In this document: in pieces, positions 128-47,049 of the stretch
Numbering within the stretch: the first letter of the stretch is position 1
How the letters are laid out: each line of letters begins with the position of its first letter
Source of the DNA: a virus
Direction: 5' to 3' (one strand)
Length of the DNA: 47,049 nt
IMG/VR virus record: IMGVR_UViG_3300048134_000195
Coordinates: 1-47,049 of that record
Program-made: the position numbers and the translations under genes
Notes under the pieces: model-generated
The model's database searches: none
What the model saw: only the letters and a program-made list of their open reading frames with translations
What the model was told of the DNA's origin: nothing

Positions 128-285
128 CGACGACAGTCGACGATTACATCGAGACGCCTGGCGGTAATAAGGTCCACCCGAAGAACAAGAGCGCGTACTC
201 TGACGGTGGGTCGTATCGGAACGGTTCACTCTCGCATATGCCTGGATTCGGCGGCGACGACGAGGAGGATGATCCCGATGACTGA
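1..285 (+). CDS. 3' part of the junction-spanning gene (continuation of 45978..46922), ending ..GFGGDDEEDDPDD*
   Basis: Frame 1 is open from position 1 to TGA 283-285. It is the same frame as 45978..47049 once the 127-bp overlap is collapsed. The track shows only the internal-Met piece 40..285. Confidence 0.75.
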   Translation, partial: DDSSPAALVVDVQMIEEVDSELAATILRYHDKAEEGLLGSPTSTTVDDYIETPGGNKVHPKNKSAYSDGGSYRNGSLSHMPGFGGDDEEDDPDD

Positions 286-1504: not shown

Positions 1505-2718
1505 GCCTCATCGGCACGTGCTCGGACTGTGGTGTGGGTGGCGTGAGTCTCCGGTACAAGCCCGGCGTCCCGGTCAACGAGCAGTCTCGGCCATCGGTCT
1601 GTGACCGCTGCCGGGACTTCCGTGAGGAGCAGGACACTCACTACGTCACCTGCGAGGAATGCGGCGACCGTGTCCCGTCGGAGCGTGCGAAGTCGCTTGA
1701 CGTGACCGCCGAAGACGAGTACTACCCCGAGTTCATCCACTTCTGCCCCACCTGCGGGCCGGAGGAGAACGATGACGAGCCCGAGTTAGTGACCGACGGC
1801 GGCCGTGCGGAAGAGGGACGGGGAGATAATCACGACGACGAGCGCCCCGAGGAGGTTGATGCGTTCGTCGACGCGTACGCCGACTACTGCCAGGCAGCCG
1901 ACGACAGCGTCGAGGCGTGCGAGACCGCGAACACGTACCTCTTCGACGAGTACGCAGCGAGCCACCTCACCAACCACCCCAGCCCGGACGCTCCCGATGG
2001 CCTGGAGGATCTGGCCGAGCTCCCGATTGGGTTCGATGAATCGCTCGACCCGGATACTGTCGGTCGGTACTTCGATCTGGCTGTCGCACGTCTACACAAT
2101 CGCGCCAGCACGGGCTCGTTCTACACGCCCGATACCATCGTCGAGTACATCGACAAGGAGACAATCCGCCCGAGGGTTCGCGATATCCTCGAAGAAGACG
2201 TCGGCGTCGACGTCTCCTGCGTGCCGGACTCCGACATCCCCATCGACGAACTCGCCGACGCGTGCAGTCCCGAGCAAGCCAGTGAAGCGCTCGGGGAGCT
2301 CGCATCGTGTTCGATTTGTGACCCGGCGTGTGGGAGCGGCCAGTTCCTCGTCCAGGCCGTCGACGAAGTCGCCTCAATTCGACACGCGCTCGCCGACCGG
2401 ACTGACGCCGACGTCCACCACGCGGCGCACGTCTGGGCGGCCACACACACCGTCTACGGCGTCGACCTCGTCCCCGAGACGGTGCGGATGGCGCGCCTAC
2501 GCGTCAAACTCCGCGTCATCGACGCACTTCCCGCCGGCGCTCCCCAGGAAGTCCTCGAGGAGGACCTGCCGCGGATTCGTGAGGGGCGGCATCTGGAGCA
2601 TCAGATCAAGCACGGCAACAGCCTCATCGGCATCACTGATATGGAGAAACTCGAAGACGCACTGAGCGAGGATGAACCGAGTGGGCAGACGACGCTCGCC
2701 GGAGGTGACTGGGCATGA
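1501..2718 (+). CDS. Zn-ribbon N-terminus fused to a methyltransferase-like SAM-binding half with no catalytic NPPY motif (405 aa)
   Basis: ATG 1501 overlaps the upstream stop (ATGA). Four Cys pairs (CSDC, CDRC, CEEC, CPTC). Motifs GSFYTPDTIVEYI, CDPACGSGQFLV, YGVDLVPETVRMARL and IKHGNSLIG, then the protein ends. Confidence 0.7.
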   Translation: MSLIGTCSDCGVGGVSLRYKPGVPVNEQSRPSVCDRCRDFREEQDTHYVTCEECGDRVPSERAKSLDVTAEDEYYPEFIHFCPTCGPEENDDEPELVTDGGRAEEGRGDNHDDERPEEVDAFVDAYADYCQAADDSVEACETANTYLFDEYAASHLTNHPSPDAPDGLEDLAELPIGFDESLDPDTVGRYFDLAVARLHNRASTGSFYTPDTIVEYIDKETIRPRVRDILEEDVGVDVSCVPDSDIPIDELADACSPEQASEALGELASCSICDPACGSGQFLVQAVDEVASIRHALADRTDADVHHAAHVWAATHTVYGVDLVPETVRMARLRVKLRVIDALPAGAPQEVLEEDLPRIREGRHLEHQIKHGNSLIGITDMEKLEDALSEDEPSGQTTLAGGDWA

Positions 2719-3608
2719 GCACGCCCGAGTTCACCCGGGAGGACGACGGTGAGACGCGTGCGCTGAACCGTGGGGCGTCGGCGCTCCAGGAGTTCCTCGA
2801 CGTCTTCGGCGAGGGCGGGATCACCGAGCAGGATCGCGCGCACATGCAGAAGCTCGTGGACCGCGGCGGCCACGAGAACAAAGTCTCCCGGCGGTTGTGC
2901 GCGGAGATTCGCCGGAAGCGCCACTGCGGGCAGGGCTCCCCAGATGTCGCCGAGGAGATCCCCTTCGAGATTTCGACGTCCTCGGTCGTCTACCATGCTG
3001 GGGGGCGCTGCCAGCACTACACGGACATCCCCGCGGTCACCGGGAACGGCCGCGTCACCCAAATCCTGTGTGGCGTGATGCGGCAAGCCCGCTGGCAGGG
3101 ACTTCCCCCGAAGGCGATTGCGTGGGCGGTCCCCTGCGAGATCGACCGCGGCAGCGTGAGCTACCACACGATTGGAGACTGCACGCACGAGACCGACGTG
3201 CCACCCTTCTCCCGGCGGACTGTCTCGGCGAGTGACTGCCGGGACTGGCGGGCGCGCGTCGGCGATGAGACGATGGGGGAGATCGCGCGGCGGACGCCGT
3301 GGTCGTACACGACGGTCGCGTCCCACGTTGAGGGACACTGCAACCACGACCACGAAACCGACAGCGAGTCGGAGTCGGTGTCGGCGGGTGTGGGTCGTGA
3401 GCAGTGTCGGGCGTGGCGGCGTATCGTCCGCGAGCAGCTCCGCGACCCGGAGGGGGTTGCGGAGGATGGTGGGTTCGATGAGGAGCTGGTGCGGCGGCAC
3501 GTCACGGGGGCGTGCGAGCACGGGTTCGACATCATCGAGGAGATGCCGCTTCGGTACAACGGGATGGAGTGGGTGCCGCTGGAGGATTTGCTGGGGGTGG
3601 ACGGCTGA
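2715..3608 (+). CDS. Cys/His-rich protein (297 aa) with four HxxGxCxH repeats
   Basis: Track ORF, ATGA overlap with the upstream gene. Repeats are YHAGGRCQH, YHTIGDCTH, SHVEGHCNH and RHVTGACEH. Two are preceded by CRxWR and an HTH-like stretch. Confidence 0.65.
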   Translation: MSTPEFTREDDGETRALNRGASALQEFLDVFGEGGITEQDRAHMQKLVDRGGHENKVSRRLCAEIRRKRHCGQGSPDVAEEIPFEISTSSVVYHAGGRCQHYTDIPAVTGNGRVTQILCGVMRQARWQGLPPKAIAWAVPCEIDRGSVSYHTIGDCTHETDVPPFSRRTVSASDCRDWRARVGDETMGEIARRTPWSYTTVASHVEGHCNHDHETDSESESVSAGVGREQCRAWRRIVREQLRDPEGVAEDGGFDEELVRRHVTGACEHGFDIIEEMPLRYNGMEWVPLEDLLGVDG

Positions 3609-4175: not shown

Positions 4176-4794
4176 TAGATACGACCGCGATGGTCCGCAG
4201 TCTCTCGGAGATGTCTCGCTGGACGCCGTTGAGGATGCGGTCTTCGAGATTCGCCAGCGCGCCGAGTTCGTCGGGTGGACGGACTACGAGCGCGAACAGC
4301 AGTACCACGCGCTCGCGGACCATCTCCTCGACGCGAAACAGGAGTGGCCGGTCGGCGTCGGTGCCGTCCTGTATGGCCTAGACGGCGACGAGGAGTCCCG
4401 CGACCTCTGGCACGTCACCGACCGATTCGCCAGCGTCGACGGCAGCACGAAGCTCGTCACGCTCTGGGATGGCACCCACACCTCGCGCCGGTACGTGCGT
4501 GCCGAGGACCTCCTCGCGGACTACACTCCCGCGGGCTGGTCGTGGCCGACCGGGAAGAAGCCGCTCTACCACCTCACGCGTGAGTGCGGTGCTGACGACC
4601 GTGCCGACCTTATGACCGACGGCGGTGGCGCGTGCTCGTCGTGCGGCGGCCAGATTATCGATGCGTACGAGCTCCCGGGCGGCGACGTGGTGCACGCTGA
4701 CGACGTCGCGTTTAGCGACGGGCCGATGGGTGTCTCCGCGATTGAGGTCTGCCGGCAGTGTGGGGCTCAGGTGGAGGTCGATGGCGATGCCTGA
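4168..4794 (+). CDS. Hypothetical protein (208 aa; TTG start in TTGAGTGA overlap, alternative ATG 4111)
   Basis: Acidic, coding-looking part of track ORF 4042..4794 begins at ..LSDRYDRDG. C-terminal CSSCGG..CRQCG. Confidence 0.55.
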   Translation: MSDRYDRDGPQSLGDVSLDAVEDAVFEIRQRAEFVGWTDYEREQQYHALADHLLDAKQEWPVGVGAVLYGLDGDEESRDLWHVTDRFASVDGSTKLVTLWDGTHTSRRYVRAEDLLADYTPAGWSWPTGKKPLYHLTRECGADDRADLMTDGGGACSSCGGQIIDAYELPGGDVVHADDVAFSDGPMGVSAIEVCRQCGAQVEVDGDA

Positions 4795-6324: not shown

Positions 6325-6540
6325 CGCCCAGTGTGGGCGTCGAGGCGAGGGACTGTATCGAGCAAGGAACGTCTCCGGCTGTCGATAGGGACCAACGACG
6401 GCATACACGTCGGCCGCCCCACGTGGGGAGACTGCCTCGTGGATAACACGAGTCCTCCCCATGTGGGGGCGGCCATTTGCGTCTGTTCTCCCAGCCTCGC
6501 CCCCACCCAGGGTGGGCGTCGACGTCACGGTCGAGCGAGG
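6325..6540. repeat. Cluster of GC-rich palindromes and direct repeats in a non-coding gap
   Basis: cgcccagtgtgggcg at 6325-6339. Composite hairpin at 6412-6474. cgcccccacccagggtgggcg at 6498-6518. Direct repeat gtgggcgtcga at 6333-6343 and 6512-6522. Confidence 0.8.
6412..6474. repeat. Long composite hairpin: 19-bp outer stem (one bulge, one G-T) enclosing a 6-bp stem with a GATAA loop
   Basis: ggccgccccacgtggggag (6412-6430) pairs with ctccccatgtgggggcggcc (6455-6474). Inner stem is ctcgtg (6436-6441) with cacgag (6447-6452). Confidence 0.8.
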
Positions 6541-34688: not shown

Positions 34689-35081
34689 TCACTCAATCGC
34701 GTAGCCCCATCCCCGCAGGACCTCCGCAATCTCGTCGTCGTGCTCGAGGCCGACCAGCAGCGCAGCCTCGCGCAAGTCCGCCTTCTTCACAGACTCGCCG
34801 AGCAACTGCTCGACGTCACTCTTCCCGGCGCGTTCAGCGTCCACAGTATCGGCTTGTAGATGGAGTTGCACCGTCTTCTCACGCCCGTCCGTAATGCTAT
34901 TTCGGCGATGAATCCATGGCAGCCGCGTCGTCGTGTCACCGCCAGCATCCTGCACCGACCCACCCGTCGACTCAGGAGTCTGGTCGCGGTCGACGTCGCG
35001 ACGATCGTCGGCGTCCTCTTCCTCCTCAAAACTATCATCATCCCAGTCGTCGTCCGCAGCGCCGCTCTTGAATCCAGCCAT
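34689..35081 (-). CDS. Acidic protein with a C-terminal RHH-like domain, ParG-like partner of ParA (130 aa)
   Basis: Track ORF with ATGA overlap onto parA. C-terminus is ..LPWIHRRNS..VQLHLQ..ADLREAALLVGLEH..LRGWGYAIE. Confidence 0.55.
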   Translation of the reverse strand: MAGFKSGAADDDWDDDSFEEEEDADDRRDVDRDQTPESTGGSVQDAGGDTTTRLPWIHRRNSITDGREKTVQLHLQADTVDAERAGKSDVEQLLGESVKKADLREAALLVGLEHDDEIAEVLRGWGYAIE

Positions 35082-35968
35082 CAGGCGGTCACCTCGGTTT
35101 CATCCTCGTCGTCGAGCGCACCGGGCTCAGGCGGGGATGGTGCCTCAATCCCGCCAACGCGCTCGATGAACCGCGCGATTTCGTCGAACTGCGCGAGCGT
35201 ATCCACTTCGTAGTCCCGGCGCCGGTCGCGGTGTTCACGAACGTACTGATACGCCGAGCACTGTTGCCGCCAGCACCCCTCCAGCAGGGCCGTCCGGTCC
35301 CCGATCACCGCGGGGACGTCGTACGGGATCTCCTTGAGGAGGTCCTGCTGATCGCTCGTTCCCTTGACCCCGACGGGGACGGCGCCGAGGACACCGACGT
35401 CGATGTTCAATTCGTCCGCGAAGTTCCGCGCGAGGTCCTCCAGCCCCTCAACTGCTGCTTGTCCTTTCGCGCTCGGTTCGACTGGGAGGAGGAGGTTTCG
35501 CGTGGCGTAGATCGCGTTGTAGAGGTGTGCCCCCTCCGTTGCGGGCGGGTCGACGATGACGACGTCGTACTCGCTGGGGACGTCGGCTTCTTGGAGGACG
35601 CGCCGGAGCTGGGCGTGGACGTTGTATGCTTCGCCGAAGTCCTCTGCTTTCTGCTTCTCGCGGCGGAGGTGGTCTTCGAGGTCCGACAGCGCGTTGTGCT
35701 CGGGGACAATGTCGACGCCCTCGGCGGTCCGAATGAGGTCGTGGAACGGACCGCGTGGTGAGTCGACCATGTGGCGGACGATGTTGTCGGCTGAGGAGTT
35801 CTCGCGGTCGTCGTCGACGTCGAAGAGGCGGCTGAGGTTTCCGTCCTGGGGGTCGAGCGGAACCACGAGGACGTCGAGGCCGGCTCGGCGATGCGCGACG
35901 GCGAGGTTCGCAGTAAGCGTCGTTTTGCCGACGCCACCTGCCTCCGAGTACACGGTGTACGCGAGCAT
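35081..35968 (-). CDS. parA: ParA/Soj-type partition ATPase (295 aa)
   Basis: Track ORF. Deviant Walker A VYSEAGGVGKTTLTANLA and Walker B-like YDVVIVDPPA. Confidence 0.85.
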   Translation of the reverse strand: MLAYTVYSEAGGVGKTTLTANLAVAHRRAGLDVLVVPLDPQDGNLSRLFDVDDDRENSSADNIVRHMVDSPRGPFHDLIRTAEGVDIVPEHNALSDLEDHLRREKQKAEDFGEAYNVHAQLRRVLQEADVPSEYDVVIVDPPATEGAHLYNAIYATRNLLLPVEPSAKGQAAVEGLEDLARNFADELNIDVGVLGAVPVGVKGTSDQQDLLKEIPYDVPAVIGDRTALLEGCWRQQCSAYQYVREHRDRRRDYEVDTLAQFDEIARFIERVGGIEAPSPPEPGALDDEDETEVTA

Positions 35969-39686: not shown

Positions 39687-39728
39687 TTAACCAACACGCG
39701 ACCGGATAGCAGTGGCTGTGTTGGTTAA
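39687..39728. repeat. 11-bp perfect inverted repeat ttaaccaacac / gtgttggttaa with a 20-nt spacer
   Basis: Read directly. It lies upstream of orc1/cdc6 and is followed by a T5 run (39744-39748). Confidence 0.7.
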
Positions 39729-39796: not shown

Positions 39797-40816
39797 ATGT
39801 ACGCTCGGTATCACGTCTTCGATGAAGGCTGGGTGCCCGAGGACCTCCATGCCCGCAACGGCGAGCTGCAAGCGCTCGCCGACGCCCTCGACGACCTCGC
39901 GCGTGGGTCCCGTGCGCCTAACCCCGTCCTCCTCAGCGGGCCGCCCGGCGCCGGGAAAACCGCGTCATCCCGGTACGTCCTCGACGATCTCGAAGACTCC
40001 ACGACAGTCCACACGGCGTTAGTCGACGCCTGGACGAACCACAAGCCCTACCAGACGTACGGCGCGCTCCTCCAGGAGCTCGGGAAGGCTGGCGTCGTCC
40101 AACCCCAGACCCCGCACAGCGCCCTCCGTGATCGTGTCCGCGACGCCACCCCAGACGGCGGCGTCGTTGTCGTGCTTGACGAGGCCGACCAGCTTGACGA
40201 CCCACAGATCCTGCGTGACCTCGACGCGATGGCTGGTGTTGCGGTGGTCGCAATCGTCAACGACGAGGCCGGGTTCCGCGACCGGCTCGACCGCAAATCC
40301 GCCGGCGTCGAGTTCCGCGAGTCAGTCCCGTTCGGCCCCTACAGTGAGGGAGAGTTAGTGGATATCCTGCAGCCGCGTGCAAGCCGTGGGCTGCGCCTGG
40401 GGTACCGGCGGACGAACGCCCTCGAGGCAGTTGCCGCGCGCGCCAACGGGAACGCACGGGTTGCCATCCAGGGGCTGCGGGCAGCTGCCGAGCACGCGCA
40501 CGAGTCGAATCGTAGCGAGATCCGCATCTGGGACGTCGAGGCTGGGATTGATACGGCGGTCGAGCAGATCCGCCGGAAGACCCGGTCGCGGTTGCAGCGC
40601 CACGAACGCGTCGTCCTGGAGGTGGTTGAGGATCTTGAGCCGGCGCGGAAAAGCGCGGTCTACGAGGAGTACGCGAATCGGGTTGGGGAGGAGGCGCGGA
40701 GTCAGCGCCGTGTTGAGGATTATCTCTCGAAGTTGACGTCGTATAATCTGCTTGTGGCTGAGGGGGAGACGCGCGCTCGTCGATACGCGGTTGCTGGCGA
40801 GGCGGCGACGGCGTAA
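39797..40816 (+). CDS. orc1: Orc1/Cdc6 replication initiator (339 aa)
   Basis: Track ORF. Walker A LLSGPPGAGKTASS, Walker B VVVLDEADQL and a C-terminal winged helix. Confidence 0.9.
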   Translation: MYARYHVFDEGWVPEDLHARNGELQALADALDDLARGSRAPNPVLLSGPPGAGKTASSRYVLDDLEDSTTVHTALVDAWTNHKPYQTYGALLQELGKAGVVQPQTPHSALRDRVRDATPDGGVVVVLDEADQLDDPQILRDLDAMAGVAVVAIVNDEAGFRDRLDRKSAGVEFRESVPFGPYSEGELVDILQPRASRGLRLGYRRTNALEAVAARANGNARVAIQGLRAAAEHAHESNRSEIRIWDVEAGIDTAVEQIRRKTRSRLQRHERVVLEVVEDLEPARKSAVYEEYANRVGEEARSQRRVEDYLSKLTSYNLLVAEGETRARRYAVAGEAATA

Positions 40817-44449: not shown

Positions 44450-44697
44450 TGTCCGCCGAGACAGAGCGGACCGAGATCTGCCCGGACTGCGGATCACCCC
44501 AGATTCGGAATCGTGTCGTCCGCGGGCACGTTCCGACCGACTCGAAAGCACAGTACCGCTGCAACGACTGCAGCACCCGCTTCGACGACCCCGACACTCG
44601 GCCCGCCGAGAACCACGGCATCCCTGGCGCCGGCTCCCAACTCGGCGGCACGCTCGCCGCGATGGACGCCAGCGACCTCCAAGGAGGTGCCGACTGA
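44449..44697 (+). CDS. Zn-ribbon protein (82 aa)
   Basis: Track ORF. Motifs CPDCG ... CNDCS. Confidence 0.55.
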   Translation: MSAETERTEICPDCGSPQIRNRVVRGHVPTDSKAQYRCNDCSTRFDDPDTRPAENHGIPGAGSQLGGTLAAMDASDLQGGAD

Positions 44698-44993
44698 TGC
44701 CGGATCTCGCCGAGCACCACTACCCACCAAACAGTACCGACGCTGGGGTCGCCCCGGACGTCGAGGACTTCCGAGAGCAGGTCCGAGAATACTGCCGCTA
44801 CCGCCGCGACGAGCAGGGGAACGCGTACGTCACCGCGACGAAGGTCACCCGTGAGTTCGACGTCACGCCCCAGAAGGCGGGCGCCGCACTCGCGAAACTC
44901 ACGGAAGCGGGCGCGCTCTCCACGTGGAAGGACGACGCGCGCCGGACGACCTACCGCATCACGCTCGACGACACGGGTGGTCGCGATGAGTGA
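44697..44993 (+). CDS. wHTH-like small protein (98 aa)
   Basis: Internal ATG 44697 of track ORF 44322..44993 (ATGA overlap). VTATKVTREFDVTPQKAGAALAKLTEAGALSTW. Confidence 0.55.
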   Translation: MPDLAEHHYPPNSTDAGVAPDVEDFREQVREYCRYRRDEQGNAYVTATKVTREFDVTPQKAGAALAKLTEAGALSTWKDDARRTTYRITLDDTGGRDE

Positions 44994-45240
44994 GTACGGC
45001 CGCCCCACCGCAACCAGCGGGGACCGTCCCTCGAATCCGGACATCAAGGACCGCATCGGCGAGGATCCCGCGCGCTACCTCGTCGACCCGGACATGACGA
45101 CGTGGAGCCGTATCCGCGGCATCAACAGCGAGGACGTGCTCGAGGCGTGGCTCAGTGTCGAGGAAGACCTCGGCCCACGCCGCAAGGTCATCAAGCGCCT
45201 GAACAAGCGCCGCCGCGAGCTCCAGGAGGCGGATTCGTGA
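44986..45240 (+). CDS. Hypothetical protein (84 aa)
   Basis: Internal ATG 44986 of track ORF 44851..45240. ATGAGTGA overlap. Confidence 0.5.
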   Translation: MSEYGRPTATSGDRPSNPDIKDRIGEDPARYLVDPDMTTWSRIRGINSEDVLEAWLSVEEDLGPRRKVIKRLNKRRRELQEADS

Positions 45241-45401
45241 TGGCCCAACCCAGCGACCCGAACAGCCTCCCGGACTCGCTTGCGGAGTTCAAGCAGATGG
45301 CGATCGTCAAGGACTGCACCGCCTGTGGCGAGGAGACGCGGCTGCGCTTCCTCGAGGACGGCGAGTGCCCGGGCTGCAGGTACGGGGGCGATGCCGCATG
45401 A
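45240..45401 (+). CDS. Zn-ribbon protein (53 aa)
   Basis: Internal ATG 45240 of track ORF 45102..45401. Motifs CTACG ... CPGC. Confidence 0.5.
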   Translation: MAQPSDPNSLPDSLAEFKQMAIVKDCTACGEETRLRFLEDGECPGCRYGGDAA

Positions 45402-45985
45402 CGGGCGTCAGACGAACCGTCGGTCGGACGCGAACCTTCAAAGGGACGGCCAGCAAACAGGCAATCAGCAAGACACAGCAGGCACTACGAGAACACAACG
45501 GACCGCAGAAGCCGGGGCGTCCCACCGCCCCGCAGGACCAGAACTCGTCCACTGCTTCTGCGCCGAGGGACTTAGCATTTGCCCCTTCGACCAGCCCCAG
45601 CTCTATCCCTCGCGACGTCCTCGGGCGTCAGTCCACCCCCACCAGCGCAGCCAGCTGCATGCACGACTACACGATCGAGATCGACGACGTCGAACCGGAC
45701 GATGAGCCAGTCGACCACCACGACCCACTCCGAGAATTTTTTTCTTTGAAAGCCCACCCCACCACGCCATCTCTCCCCCACGGCGAGAATGAGAACAGCA
45801 CGGAGAGCGGTTGTTGTAGCGGTCTGGCTGTGCTGTGCTGTCTGAACAGTACGAAGTACTGGGGTGGGGGTACGCGTACCCCCACCCCTGTCTCCCACCA
45901 TGTTGGTGTGAGTGGTGGTGGTTCCAGCCACCGCCTCACACCATCTTGGTGGGAGCAGGCTCGTGGGGTGGTCGCCGATGTATGA
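45398..45985 (+). CDS. Questionable ORF (195 aa): a basic, low-complexity N-half whose 3' ~250 nt coincide with heavily structured DNA
   Basis: Internal ATG 45398 of track ORF 45365..45985 (ATGA overlap). There is no in-frame stop before 45985. The distal part reads like translated repeats (..CCSGLAVLCCLNSTKYWGGGTRTPTPVSHHVGVSGGGSS..). Confidence 0.35.
   Translation: MTGVRRTVGRTRTFKGTASKQAISKTQQALREHNGPQKPGRPTAPQDQNSSTASAPRDLAFAPSTSPSSIPRDVLGRQSTPTSAASCMHDYTIEIDDVEPDDEPVDHHDPLREFFSLKAHPTTPSLPHGENENSTESGCCSGLAVLCCLNSTKYWGGGTRTPTPVSHHVGVSGGGSSHRLTPSWWEQARGVVADV
45734..45751. repeat. 18-bp AT-rich inverted repeat, left arm (gaatttttttctttgaaa)
   Basis: Perfect reverse complement of 46193..46210. 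Confidence 0.95.
45827..45841. repeat. Tandem pentamer (GCTGT)x3
   Basis: gctgtgctgtgctgt read directly. Confidence 0.9.
45861..45888. repeat. 28-bp perfect palindrome ggggtgggggtacgcgtacccccacccc
   Basis: The sequence equals its own reverse complement. The centre is ACGCGT. Confidence 0.97.
45893..45954. repeat. Nested hairpin: 8-bp + 8-bp perfect stems plus an imperfect inner stem
   Basis: tcccacca (45893-45900) pairs with tggtggga (45947-45954). ggtgtgag (45905-45912) pairs with ctcacacc (45935-45942). Inner stem is tggtggtgg with ccaccgc. Confidence 0.85.
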
Positions 45986-47049
45986 CCACACTCCTCTCGA
46001 CTGGCTCGTCCCGTCCGATGAGTGGGACCGGTTCTGCCGCTTCGTCGAGGGAGAGGACGGGAGTCTCGACGGCTATCTCGGCGATGCAGCGGAACAGGCG
46101 ATGGCCGAGTACGCTCATGTCGACGAGTACGCCGGCATCGAGGAGCGGGTCGACAAGCTCGTCACGGCTGCCGGTCGCCGTCCCGAGGACGGTTTCAAAG
46201 AAAAAAATTCGGGGTTGCTGGAGGACTGGGCAGACGCGGACAAGACTCGCGTCACCGTCAAAGTCGAGCGTGAAGTGAAGGCGAAGTTCCGCGAAGTCGC
46301 GAGTGACAGCGACCACGCGTTCGGCGTGGAATTCGCGCGCGCCATTCGCACGTACCGCGACGGCGGTCGTCGCGACCGTGTCGAACGGAAGCTCGACCGC
46401 ATCCTTGACGACGCCGAACGCCTCCTCAGCGACCTGCAGCCCGACGACGAGGAGACCGAGGGTTCCTCAGAGTCGCTGTCGTTGGCGGAGCGGAAGACCA
46501 TCGCCGTCTGCGACGAGCTCGGCGAGCAGTTCACCGATGACGAACTGGTCGACGCCATCGAGCGTGTCGCCGAGGTCTCCAGCGAACCCTCGATCGAGAA
46601 GTACCGCGGGCTGGTCGTTGACCGACTCGGGATGGAGCGTCACCCAGGCGAACCGCATCTGTGGGTTCCCCATGATGTCGTGGACCAGCTCGCACCTGGC
46701 CAGCCTCGCGTAATCCGGCAGTCAGTCGAACGCCTCGATCGCGAGGAACGCGTTCGCCGCGTTCAACTGGCAGTCGGTCGTGCTGCCGCTGAACGCGACT
46801 CTGACATCGTCCGCGTGCAGACACCCGTAATTCAGGAAGAAGTCCTCGGCGGCGAAGTCACGCGGTCGAGCACGTTGAGTCTGATGCGCGCGGCGCAGTT
46901 GTCCGCGGGCATCGAGGTTGATGACGACTCCTCGCCCGCAGCGCTTGTCGTTGACGTCCAGATGATCGAAGAGGTGGATTCCGAATTGGCAGCGACGATA
47001 CTCAGGTACCACGATAAGGCCGAGGAGGGCTTGCTCGGGTCGCCGACGT
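45978..47049 (+). CDS. 5' part of the junction-spanning gene (409 aa in total on the circular map: 45978..46922 then 1..285)
   Basis: Manual codon-by-codon reading shows ATG 45978 and no stop up to the window end. The frame continues at position 1. It is absent from the ORF track because it has no stop in the window. Contains an RHH-like KTRVTVKVEREVKAKFREV segment. Confidence 0.75.
   Translation, partial: MYDHTPLDWLVPSDEWDRFCRFVEGEDGSLDGYLGDAAEQAMAEYAHVDEYAGIEERVDKLVTAAGRRPEDGFKEKNSGLLEDWADADKTRVTVKVEREVKAKFREVASDSDHAFGVEFARAIRTYRDGGRRDRVERKLDRILDDAERLLSDLQPDDEETEGSSESLSLAERKTIAVCDELGEQFTDDELVDAIERVAEVSSEPSIEKYRGLVVDRLGMERHPGEPHLWVPHDVVDQLAPGQPRVIRQSVERLDREERVRRVQLAVGRAAAERDSDIVRVQTPVIQEEVLGGEVTRSSTLSLMRAAQLSAGIEVDDDSSPAALVVDVQMIEEVDSELAATILRYHDKAEEGLLGSPT
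46193..46210. repeat. 18-bp AT-rich inverted repeat, right arm (tttcaaagaaaaaaattc), inside the junction-spanning gene
   Basis: Perfect reverse complement of 45734..45751. Encodes ..GFKEKNSG... Confidence 0.95.
46923..47049. repeat. Terminal direct repeat copy 2 (127 bp, identical to 1..127)
   Basis: Same comparison. The preceding bases ..gaggttgat have no counterpart because the window starts at the repeat. Confidence 0.97.

Follow-up and report, generated by a model that had tools for sequence, protein, structure and literature searches.

A covarying palindrome module at the start of the P0001 gene in haloarchaeal viruses and plasmids, with candidate sites for the P0001 protein

Introduction

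The start codon of the gene encoding protein P0001 lies in the middle of a control module of about 480 bp, with a T-rich inverted arm at either end (45734-45751 and 46193-46210). We analyzed this module in a circular haloarchaeal tailed-virus/plasmid genome of 46.9 kb, represented by a contig of 47,049 nt with a 127-nt end overlap (the window). That the module belongs in cis to the P0001 gene is strongly supported by the comparison of related sequences. We propose, with a confidence somewhat short of even, that its palindromes are sites for the P0001 protein, which would serve autoregulation and possibly an origin of the non-Orc1 type. The order of the module is arm L, variable hairpins, the palindrome H3, the compound hairpin O1-centre-O2, a Shine-Dalgarno sequence, the start codon, the region encoding the first DNA-binding motif, and arm R. 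The individual features are as follows.

45473-45647, plus strand: element A, located before the module; non-coding, conserved, and structured
45734-45751, plus strand: arm L, GAATTTTTTTCTTTGAAA, the left inverted repeat, a perfect 18-nt match to 46193-46210
45827-45841, plus strand: (GCTGT)x3, which in the variable leader part would form the 3' side of a predicted, lineage-specific hairpin
45861-45888, no strand assigned: H3, the G-string palindrome GGGGTGGGGGTACGCGTACCCCCACCCC, perfect with 14 + 14 nt
45892-45955, no strand assigned: compound hairpin (H4), CTCCCACCA-TGT-TGGTGTGAG / TGGTGGTGGTTCCAGCCACCGC / CTCACACCA-TCT-TGGTGGGAG
45892-45912, no strand assigned: O1, a 21-bp palindromic unit, CTCCCACCA-TGT-TGGTGTGAG, with the half-sites A1 and A2
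45913-45934, no strand assigned: central palindrome or hairpin, TGGTGGTGGTT-CCAG-CCACCGC, near-invariant on its 5' side
45935-45955, no strand assigned: O2, the second 21-bp unit, CTCACACCA-TCT-TGGTGGGAG, with the half-sites A3 and A4
45965-45973, plus strand: Shine-Dalgarno-like sequence GGGGTGGTC, which in relatives reads GGAGGTGATC; the distance to the ATG is 4 nt
45978-47049, continuing at window positions 128-285 of the circular contig with its 127-nt end overlap, plus strand: P0001 gene, 409 aa
46193-46210, minus strand: arm R, the same 18-mer as arm L, within P0001 codons 72-78 (FKEKNS)

Results

The module accompanies P0001 homologues in viruses and plasmids

H3 and the compound hairpin were found once per replicon at a minimum of 13 related loci, each time directly upstream of a P0001 homologue. 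A covariance model of the element, built from 10 loci, identified exactly one copy per locus that always ended at the start codon of the P0001 homologue. Outside the model set, it matched Haloferax gibbonsii pHG4 with 71 bits, a Halomarina plasmid with 80 bits, and Haloarcula marismortui pNG100 with 58 bits. In pHG4, the module is intact and the neighboring P0001-type gene is truncated. The carriers are proviruses, virus-like plasmids, and plasmids of Halobacterium, Haloarcula, Haloferax, and Halomarina. In the viral contexts, the P0001-type gene is located upstream of HNH and terminase genes, and the module is also present beside parA in plasmid contexts that lack packaging genes. The order module-P0001-parA was found at the loci L007, L254, and L258; the parA of the window itself (35081-35968) is encoded on the opposite strand and does not follow P0001. 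The window also encodes an Orc1/Cdc6 protein (cdc6, 39797-40816) and a tyrosine recombinase. L262 is a complete 16.7-kb plasmid that possesses the module and P0001, and its possibly incomplete gene annotation (PLSDB gene table) lists no Orc1/cdc6 or Rep and no recombinase.

Neither the region nor P0001 had a match in DNA and protein searches of the phage collection, and a related-locus search with P0001 alone found nothing in viral or genome contigs. A 16-mer pattern was too unspecific and gave only chance matches in unrelated organisms when viral and genome contigs were scanned; a longer gapped pattern found one true locus (L253) together with two chance matches in metagenomes and no match in viral contigs. 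The papers on ChaoS9 and PhiH1 contain no description of an element of this kind. A tRNA scan of the window found none, and the GC skew of the window tracks the direction of transcription and is uninformative on an origin.

H3 and the compound hairpin

With its stem of 14 bp, compared to 10 bp for the next-best perfect hairpins, H3 is by far the longest perfect palindrome of the window. An exhaustive scan (stem of at least 9, loop of at most 8) detected 10 perfect hairpins in the window, and the mean of shuffled sequences was 3. From base composition, simple arithmetic yields an expectation of about 6e-4 perfect 28-bp palindromes in 47 kb, which bears out the view of a preliminary description of this DNA that H3 is beyond chance. 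The positions given there for H3 and for (GCTGT)x3 were correct as well; the latter repeat is retained only in the closest relatives, L003 and L004. The general form of H3, GGGG(T/A)GGGGG-N(about 8)-CCCCC(A/T)CCCC, is kept in 12 of 13 loci, and a T:A pair is swapped to A:T on both sides among the loci. The center varies freely and is non-palindromic in 8 of 11 relatives. A recurrence of the H3 arm at 6500-6508 had also been claimed, and CCCCCACCC is indeed present at this position, but the 9-mer match is not significant and the covariance model of the element has no match there, so that the suggested link to a palindrome cluster at 6.5 kb is not supported.

The compound hairpin had been described as a nested hairpin at 45893-45954 with two 8-bp stems and an imperfect third one, ending 23 nt before the ATG at 45978. 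The hairpin is real and is located just upstream of the gene, but it is one base longer on each side (45892-45955), and we count 22 nt from its 3' end to the ATG. The same sequence can equally be described as two copies of one 21-bp palindrome, O1 and O2, that flank a third palindrome. The centers of O1 and O2 are 43 bp apart, and the core of the sites is CCA-N3-TGG. There are exactly two copies of the 21-bp unit CTCMCACCANNNTGGTGKGAG in the window, one and the other within the hairpin, compared to an expectation of 0.04. This description had been overlooked, as had the covarying T-rich arms and the Shine-Dalgarno sequence.

The 9-nt half-sites exist in several versions (CTCACACCA, CTCACATCA, CTCCCTGTA, TACCCTGCA, and CTTCCTCCA), and the four half-sites of a locus change in concert; all four differ together in L002, L009, L256, and L262. 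In L262, the center has also changed on both sides to TAGTAGTAGT-GGAG-CTACTAC, with the dyad kept. Across 45892-45955, not a single indel was found in 10 aligned loci, loops included.

T-rich arms and flanking elements

The 18-nt inverted repeat formed by arms L and R is perfect over a distance of 441 bp, with 0 such repeats expected by chance, and no other T/A run of 6 or more is present in the window. The midpoint of the two arms is the P0001 start codon. In six lineages, the arms covary: their mutual identity is kept while the sequence differs between lineages, and the peptide encoded by arm R changes with it. Arm L is preceded by a BRE-like CGAGAA, and the first hairpin begins 34-40 nt past the start of the arm-L T-run (six loci, read from the sequence). 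Arm L is a likely candidate for the BRE/TATA promoter of the sense transcript, and arm R is a candidate for an antisense promoter or for a second binding or unwinding site. We rejected the idea that the module is an eroded large palindrome, as its antidiagonal complementarity of 0.20-0.33 corresponds to chance. A mirrored minus-strand gene as the reason for the arms was also rejected, as the minus-strand ORFs are rich in W, P, and R and not conserved.

The Shine-Dalgarno columns GG.GGTG.TC are kept in 12 of 13 loci, with a distance of 4-8 nt to the start codon, and we take GGGGTGGTC to be complementary to the 3' end of the haloarchaeal 16S rRNA. The type of H3 (T or A) fits the type of the Shine-Dalgarno sequence in only about 6 of 11 loci, which means that their covariation is inconsistent. 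An upstream ORF (45660-45985) overlaps the P0001 ATG by 8 nt, and the same layout is found in L007 and L258. As it is absent in L003 and L253, we discarded translational coupling with this ORF.

Element A, whose membership in the module is uncertain, is possibly a small RNA or a 3' UTR. It matches unannotated DNA from five Halobacterium plasmids with 85% identity, and the downstream protein of these plasmids is only 25% identical. Its stem GCAGAAGC/GCTTCTGC encloses CGGGGCG/CGCCCCG, and other complementary sequences substitute for it in L253 and L257. The RNA fold of element A has a z-score of -2.8, and the Rfam search found no match for it.

P0001 has a predicted architecture of the DNA-binding type

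The predicted structure of P0001 (AlphaFold/AF2, pLDDT 76) shows a beta-alpha-alpha arrangement twice, followed by two winged-helix units. On the basis of this model, P0001 appears to be a DNA-binding-type protein with two ribbon-helix-helix-like and two winged-helix-like parts. The sequence-based matches to RHH_1/Arc are weak, and Pfam RHH_1 matches only 2 of 21 family members (E = 0.008). The Foldseek neighbors are winged-helix and ribbon-helix-helix proteins, all with E > 0.005. P0001 matches phrog_29021, which is listed as of unknown function, and searches of Pfam, NCBIfam, PDB sequences, and Foldseek (PDB, BFVD) gave no significant family. The Foldseek searches also gave no significant match to a Rep protein, with RepE/Pi-type chains absent from the top 50 structural neighbors, and the predicted model contains no recombinase-like fold.

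Arm R falls within the disordered linker after the first ribbon-helix-helix motif, whose residues 73-79 have a pLDDT <50 in the model. The arm-R motif is absent from the full-length paralogue P0013, which has no module of its own. The synonymous codon identity of the P0001 gene is 0.77-0.86 in the first 24-48 codons, compared to about 0.3-0.6 later. There are 24 homologue clusters among 5.8 billion, none of which has a swapped or missing N-terminus, and no correlation was evident between the half-site type and the N-terminal beta-strand of P0001.

Discussion

DNA sites or a structured leader RNA

In general terms, the preliminary description had proposed that the region is a functional cis element with dyad symmetry and a connection to the gene downstream. 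This proposal is strongly supported: in at least 13 loci, the region is conserved and covaries, with the dyad symmetry kept by compensatory change. Compensatory double changes affect 18 of 36 pairs. Nested pairing reaches 91.4%, which none of 500 shuffles equaled and which compares to 37-47% in slid controls; pairing as two local palindromes reaches 91.7%. With the 18 half-site pairs, the values are 94.4% for nested and 91.5% for local pairing, and in five lineages nested pairing is better than local pairing. As the half-sites change in concert, the local-palindrome model fits as well as the nested hairpin.

The RNA fold of 45820-45980 has a predicted energy of -97.3 kcal/mol (z = -6.95), and none of 200 shuffled sequences was as stable. 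A fold of about 108 nt with -57 to -82 kcal/mol was obtained for every family locus, except for the distant L001, where it was weaker (-43). Between the plus and minus strands, the fold energies differ by no more than about 2-4 kcal/mol in 10 of 11 loci and by 9 in the distant L001. In 8 of 11 loci, the plus strand has a slight advantage of 2-4 kcal/mol, with G·U counts of 19 versus 11. In the nested arms of H4, 8 G·U cells compare to 5 A·C cells, and in H3 3 G·U cells compare to 5 A·C cells, all of which are small and non-independent counts. As the half-sites change together, indels are absent, both strands fold about equally well, and no clear G·U excess is seen in these small counts, we favor double-stranded protein-bound sites over a strand-specific RNA. 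We infer that H3, O1, the central palindrome, and O2, as the core of the conserved module, form a row of four dyad-symmetric double-stranded sites that would act as DNA.

The alternative that survives best, which we regard as possible but less probable, is a structured 5' leader RNA of about 200 nt, in which the stable hairpins H1-H4 before the Shine-Dalgarno sequence would control mRNA stability or translation, possibly with an antisense partner. Transcription would start about 25 nt past the T-run of arm L, the four interchangeable arms of the compound hairpin would allow the RNA to alternate between one long hairpin and three small ones, and the C-rich 3' arm of H3 could be an anti-Shine-Dalgarno sequence. 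Arm R, as an identical promoter, would drive an antisense RNA that covers the start codon, comparable to T1/Tant of the Halobacterium virus phiH, for which antisense RNA and inversely oriented promoters are documented (PMC6210493, citing Stolt & Zillig 1993, 1994). Besides the high stability of the fold and the slight preference for the plus strand, this alternative is favored by the BRE-like GAGAA and T-run of arm L, with the first hairpin 34-40 nt later, by the raised synonymous codon identity at the gene start, and by compensatory changes in every helix, including the apex in L262.

Several aspects weaken the DNA-site reading. The strong and conserved Shine-Dalgarno sequence implies that the hairpins are transcribed, the sites lie about 85-190 nt downstream of the only plausible promoter, which is odd for an archaeal repressor and natural for a leader RNA, and the better nested pairing in five lineages as well as the compensated change of the L262 center are as in a real hairpin. 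On the other hand, the putative leader RNA shows no clear wobble preference, it has no indels even in its loops, and no single RNA fold demands the concerted change of four arms. An Rfam 15 search of 44500-47049 gave only two sub-threshold chance matches and none at gathering score. The poor agreement between the types of H3 and the Shine-Dalgarno sequence also argues against it, and no U-run follows any of the hairpins. The only T-runs are the arms, and H4 is followed by GCAGGCTCGTGGGG instead of a T-run, by which an intrinsic terminator was rejected.

Proposed autoregulation and a possible origin

According to the explanation that we prefer, P0001 would bind the palindromes as a symmetric oligomer and thereby control its own expression. 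The same nucleoprotein complex, together with the two symmetric T-rich arms, may serve as a replication origin, in a mode that would resemble lambda ori/O, P1 oriR-repA-parAB, or the SV40 core origin rather than Orc1/ORB. The context is origin-like because of the order module-P0001-parA, the Orc1- and Rep-free annotation of L262, the lack of ORB repeats beside cdc6, and the fact that the only A/T tracts are symmetric about the start codon. The full version of this idea, which we consider doubtful at present, would be a new virus and plasmid origin of archaea with P0001 as a new non-Orc1 initiator family that binds the central palindromes, and with the arms as symmetric points of unwinding or of leading-strand initiation; outward leading strands would have the T-rich strand as their template. 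An initiator role of P0001 is weakened by the Orc1/Cdc6 of the window, which could itself be the initiator. The preferred explanation as a whole is weakened by pHG4, which keeps the module beside a truncated gene, by the lack of a Rep fold match, and by the lack of a correlation between half-sites and the beta-strand.

A plain transcriptional operator, consisting of repressor sites for P0001 or another regulator with no replication role and with arms that are unrelated promoter or terminator signals, seems unlikely to us. A gene that has ribbon-helix-helix-like motifs and is preceded by palindromes of 21-28 bp does represent a classic autoregulation layout, and the lineage-specific half-sites resemble immunity specificities. 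However, such an operator leaves the covariation of the arms in six lineages and their midpoint at the start codon unexplained, its sites would be far downstream of the only A/T-rich promoter candidate, and four to six different palindromes exceed the usual complexity of operators.

It is very unlikely that the module is a canonical archaeal Orc1/Cdc6 origin, with the palindromes or arms as ORB elements for the viral Cdc6. G-strings as in H1 and H3 are typical of haloarchaeal ORBs (PMC1868953, PMC3528665), the arms are inverted, and cdc6 has no ORB repeats at its side. However, the consensus GTTCCAGTGGAAAC is absent from the module, and its four matches in the window (up to 3 mismatches) are all elsewhere, with 2.8 expected. 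The O sites have a CCA-N3-TGG instead of a CCA-N1-TGG core, and several genes and a distance of 5 kb separate the module from cdc6. There is also no A/T-rich DUE of 50-100 bp but only two 18-bp A/T tracts and a GC-rich interior, cdc6 is missing within 2.5-3 kb at several loci, and none is annotated on the 16.7-kb plasmid.

The functions that had been suggested for the region in the preliminary description included operator- or origin-type protein binding and a structured leader, both of which are viable, as well as recombinase and terminase sites, which found no support. We give hardly any weight to a packaging (cos/pac) or telomere-resolution site. The viral-context position upstream of HNH and terminase genes would suit packaging, and the perfect palindrome with its ACGCGT center recalls telO of N15. 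However, the module is also found in non-viral plasmid contexts beside parA without packaging genes, a resolution site would need the palindromic center that most relatives lack, P0001 has no recombinase-like (protelomerase) fold in the predicted model, and the contig assembles as a circle through the palindrome region. Least probable of all is an invertible DNA switch with the arms as crossover sites, at which a recombinase would flip the 441-bp segment (leader and first 72 codons): the perfect inverted repeats about 440 bp apart, their mutual identity despite the sequence change between lineages, and the tyrosine recombinase of the window would fit, but all of the at least 13 loci have a single orientation, no homologue cluster has an exchanged N-terminus, the inverted state yields no sensible reading frame, and most loci have no recombinase within 2.5-3 kb, with none annotated on L262.

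Significance and comparison with known systems

To our knowledge, hardly any control or replication region of a haloarchaeal tailed virus or plasmid has been mapped apart from phiH and phiCh1, and Orc1/ORB is the only well-defined type of archaeal origin. The analysis defines a compact, recognizable cis module and its partner gene family for elements of Halobacterium, Haloarcula, Haloferax, and Halomarina. Its mutable parts (four half-sites, the central hairpin, and two arms) and culturable hosts, such as Haloarcula marismortui ATCC 43049 with pNG100 (module at about 24.9-25.4 kb), Haloferax gibbonsii ARA6 with pHG4, and the Halobacterium salinarum strains of GCA_030250265 and GCA_030250185, make the question of operator, origin, or RNA switch directly testable. 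As an origin, the module would represent a second initiator/origin system for archaeal mobile elements and would offer a new backbone for haloarchaeal vectors; as a convergent-promoter or leader switch, it would be a rare dissectable archaeal control element of the lysis/lysogeny type.

Known operators of ribbon-helix-helix repressors are those of Arc and Mnt of P22, CopG of pMV158, omega of pSM19035, and ParR/parC of R1. Like them, the module has short sites, dyad or repeated, directly in front of the gene of the (putative) binder, several such sites, which are bound cooperatively in the known systems, and lineage-specific site sequences. It differs in that it has four to six different, longer (21-28 bp), and GC-rich palindromes about 100-200 nt downstream of the likely promoter, and in that P0001 is a protein of 409 aa with four DNA-binding-type units whose binding is predicted.

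Origins that overlap the initiator gene or its promoter are known from lambda (ori in gene O), P1 (oriR-repA-parAB), and SV40, whose core origin consists of a 27-bp palindrome with four pentanucleotides and an A/T tract. As in these cases, the element is unique in the replicon and has symmetric putative initiator sites beside A/T tracts. As in lambda O, one A/T tract is in the linker-coding part of the putative initiator gene, and the gene order with parA at three loci is as in P1. In contrast to these origins, the module has inverted repeats and no direct-repeat iterons, its A/T tracts have only 18 bp and are 110-240 bp away from the sites, and P0001 has no detectable similarity to known initiators.

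The ssiA and ssiB sites at oriV of RSF1010 are hairpin-forming signals of about 40 nt for the plasmid primase. They resemble the arms in being two identical, inverted sequences on opposite strands beside initiator-binding repeats, but here the arms do not fold and a primase gene is lacking. With haloarchaeal ORB/G-string origins, the module has inverted repeats, G-strings, and a long intergenic region in common, and it differs by the lack of the ORB consensus and of a long DUE and by its position away from orc1/cdc6.

The Halobacterium virus phiH has an early lytic transcript T1, an antisense transcript Tant, and inversely oriented promoters, according to the source cited above. Common to phiH and the module would be convergent transcription or antisense RNA that covers the 5' end of a regulatory transcript; for the module, such transcripts are predicted. 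The two show no similarity in sequence or proteins, and phiH is not reported to possess an identical promoter pair or a palindrome array.

Results

The genome carrying the palindromes has a G+C content of 65%, and its encoded proteins are acidic. Its gene content includes a portal protein 56% identical to the counterpart of Halobacterium virus ChaoS9, a tape-measure protein, a tyrosine integrase, ParA, and Orc1/Cdc6; the large-terminase match was weak and below threshold. As positions 1-127 are identical to the last 127 bases (46923-47049), the window closes into a circle of 46,922 bp, and the palindrome region is therefore not close to a physical end. The gene of the 409-aa protein P0001, which lies downstream of the palindromes, crosses the window end and terminates at position 285.

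Every feature reported in the preliminary description was found where it had been placed. The 28-bp palindrome (H3) has arms of 14 bp, and the runner-up among the perfect hairpins of the window has 10-bp stems. When folded as RNA, 45820-45980 gave a z-score of -6.95. The region is organized as follows:

45734-45751, plus strand: T-rich arm L, GAATTTTTTTCTTTGAAA
45861-45888: H3, G-string palindrome
45892-45955: H4, compound hairpin of 64 nt
45978: ATG of the P0001 gene
46193-46210, minus strand: arm R, exact reverse complement of GAATTTTTTTCTTTGAAA, within P0001 codons 72-78

H4 is more than a nested hairpin: a 21-bp palindrome occurs twice (O1 and O2, centres 43 bp apart) around a third palindrome. 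The 9-mer said to recur at 6500-6508 is indeed present there, but a meaningful link did not hold up, as the match is not significant and the covariance model of the element matches nothing else in the window. A second cluster of strong dyads lies around it at 6411-6520, in another intergenic region, with GGCCGCCCCACGTGGGGAG...CTCCCCATGTGGGGGCGGCC enclosing a smaller hairpin and a further dyad CGCCCCCACCC-A-GGGTGGGCG; by the covariance model, it is unrelated to the module.

Conservation of the layout

Beyond its own cluster, P0001 has 23 homologue clusters (34-82% identity), and we compared their contigs together with one metagenome match and annotated plasmids. All family loci having upstream sequence share the same layout directly 5' of the start codon: H3, 3-4 nt, the 64-nt H4, about 10 nt, the Shine-Dalgarno-like (SD) stretch GGAGGTGATC, and the start codon. 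These are the Halobacterium salinarum contigs L003-L005, the contigs L006, L007, L008, L009, L253, L254/255, L256, L257, and L258, and the plasmids pHG4 of Haloferax gibbonsii (L002), a 16.7-kb Halomarina plasmid (L262), and pNG100 of Haloarcula marismortui (L263). A covariance model trained on 10 loci recovered a single copy per locus, and the three plasmids, which had been left out of training, scored 71 (L002), 80 (L262), and 58 bits (L263).

P0001 matched only phrog_29021 (unknown function), with no match in Pfam, NCBIfam, or PDB sequences. Its AlphaFold model (pLDDT 76.5) has beta-alpha-alpha motifs at residues 4-45 and 89-127, followed by a long helix and then a pair of winged-helix-like units. 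Structure comparison gave winged-helix and ribbon-helix-helix proteins as neighbours, with non-significant E-values, and RHH_1 was weakly matched by 2 of 21 family members.

T-rich arms

Arms L and R contain the only T/A runs of at least 6 in the whole genome, and the arm pair was found in all family members, 416-445 bp apart. In six lineages, the arm sequence differs between lineages (GAATTTTTTTCTTTGAAA; CTTTTTTATTTTTTAG; TTTTTTGTTTCCATCCA; ACTTTTTTTGTTTGTGTG; ATTTTATTTTTTCGCTG; GAGAA-T7/9-CTTC), yet both arms of each are identical over 16-19 nt. The arm-R peptide, located in the sole disordered linker of the P0001 model, differs in step with the arm sequence (FKEKNS, LKNKKG, WKQKTS, HKQKKS, SEKIKS), and the arm-R motif is absent from a full-length paralogue having no module of its own. 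Arm identity is thus kept while the peptide varies, which, together with the paralogue, indicates that selection acts on nucleotides. In 8 of 12 loci, the midpoint between the arms lies 0.5-2.5 nt 5' of the start codon; in three others, the distance is 6-8 nt. This centring is kept although the left half is non-coding with differing hairpin content. The interior itself is not a palindrome.

A BRE-like GAGAA precedes arm L, and the first hairpin starts 34-40 nt past the T-run, which is compatible with arm L being a candidate BRE/TATA promoter with a 5'-proximal hairpin. Symmetry would make arm R a candidate promoter of an antisense RNA. In P0001 codons 1 to 24-48 (window 45978-46120), identical amino acids share the codon in 77-86%, and in later codons in about 30-60% (four pairwise comparisons), a hint that the coding sequence may be overlapped by some nucleotide-level constraint, such as an antisense RNA or DNA sites.

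A distant relative on the H. salinarum plasmid pKBTZ01_38 (L001), whose downstream protein is just 25% identical, has a perfect 14-nt inverted repeat at 4268-4281 and 4715-4728, 433 bp apart. Its right arm lies in the same linker as arm R, the purine-rich strand is on the left, unlike in the family loci, and its upstream hairpins have TTCCA-GTG-TGGAA, like a mini-ORB with a wider spacer.

Co-variation and the nature of the sites

The covariation analysis in homologous loci that had been proposed as a check did reveal compensatory changes. RNAalifold predicted 36 pairs, 18 of which had double compensatory changes, such as GGGGTGGGGG/CCCCCACCCC to GGGAGGGGG/CCCCCTCCC and CTCCCACCA/TGGTGGGAG to CTCACACCA/TGGTGTGAG. 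In the Halomarina plasmid, the H4 centre TGGTGGTGGTT..CCACC, elsewhere invariant, is replaced by TAGTAGTAGT..CTACTAC. In the nested fold of H4, 91.4% of cells were paired (0 of 500 shuffles as high; slid controls 37-47%), and an alternative fold of two local hairpins had equal support (91.7%; 0 of 500 shuffles). At the 18 half-site positions, nested pairing gave 213 Watson-Crick pairs, 8 G·U, and 13 mismatches, and local pairing 207, 7, and 20, respectively.

Between lineages, the four half-sites (the 9-nt arms of O1 and O2) change in concert, which four sites for one protein would demand and no single RNA fold would, arguing for double-stranded DNA sites. Across 10 loci, the stretch from H3 to the SD is free of indels, even in its loops; plus and minus strands fold almost equally well; G·U makes up only about 3-4% of pairs, and G·U cells are no more frequent than A·C cells. 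Together, these features favour selection on double-stranded dyads and repeated recognition sites. The palindromes would accordingly be putative DNA sites through which P0001 autoregulates its own gene; we favour this reading tentatively, at somewhat under even chances, and about half of that weight falls on versions that include an origin function.

A structured leader RNA, with or without an antisense partner, is a less probable but serious alternative. From their position between the sole promoter-like element and a strong SD, the hairpins are predicted to be certainly transcribed, and nested pairing beats local pairing in five lineages; the numbers are small and the loci are kin. These points keep the RNA reading alive beside the concerted half-site changes. 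An operator without any replication role is improbable, and would have the arms explained by something unrelated. A packaging (terminase) site, as had been suggested, or a telomere site fails on context and on the H3 centre, which is non-palindromic in most relatives. Orientation and recombinase evidence speak against an invertible DNA switch, and a canonical ORB origin failed three defining tests (PMC1868953, PMC3528665).

Genomic contexts and neighbouring elements

In proviruses, the P0001 gene marks the boundary between an early/regulatory block and an HNH/terminase/structural block, and parA follows the P0001 homologue in three loci. The module is 3 kb away from an orc1/cdc6 gene on pNG100, and on pHG4 it is intact next to a truncated gene. 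In L009 (1788-3685), it precedes a truncated 161-aa paralogue with the two ribbon-helix-helix motifs only; the full-length paralogue that follows it (P0013) has its own SD and neither the module nor the K-rich linker motif. The complete Halomarina plasmid has module and gene with no Orc1, Rep, or recombinase annotated. Besides having head and terminase genes, this plasmid (NZ_CP100460.1) encodes a relaxase and a type IV coupling protein; 1.1 kb of non-coding DNA (2445-3577) precedes its P0001 homologue, with numerous GGACG/GAGCGGAGCGAGGACGGACG repeats 5' of the module.

In L256, an intron-containing tRNA (2503-2656; Rfam tRNA 42.5 bits, not called by ARAGORN) lies 180 nt 5' of arm L, so that module and gene there form the outermost part of an element probably integrated at a tRNA gene. 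The short intergenic region immediately 5' of the window's Orc1/Cdc6 gene has an 11-bp inverted repeat, TTAACCAACAC...GTGTTGGTTAA, at 39687-39728 and no ORB-like repeats.

About 90 nt 5' of arm L lies a conserved structured non-coding stretch, Element A (45473-45647), also present at L001 4001-4174 and in L003, L253, L257, and L007. Halobacterium plasmids with far more diverged flanking genes match it at 85% identity, and in distant loci its stems are swapped for other complementary sequences. Its RNA fold has a z of -2.8, and Rfam gave no match. Element A could be a candidate small RNA ending at the arm-L T-run. A reading frame at 45660-45985, starting with an acidic peptide (MHDYTIEIDDVEPDDEPVD...), spans arm L and all hairpins and ends 8 nt past the P0001 start at ATGTATGA. 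At the acidic start, the differences from L003 are codon-like substitutions and indels of 3 nt; the long form occurs in L007 and L258, not in L003 or L253.

Discussion

The palindrome and hairpin feature is, by comparison of related loci, real and conserved, and belongs to an undescribed cis module and gene family found in mobile elements of haloarchaea. As a kind, a control or origin region built of palindromes ahead of a DNA-binding gene is familiar, and lambda, P1, SV40, RSF1010, and ribbon-helix-helix operators are analogies rather than memberships. Unfamiliar are the co-evolving T-rich arms centred on the start codon and the four-arm palindrome design.
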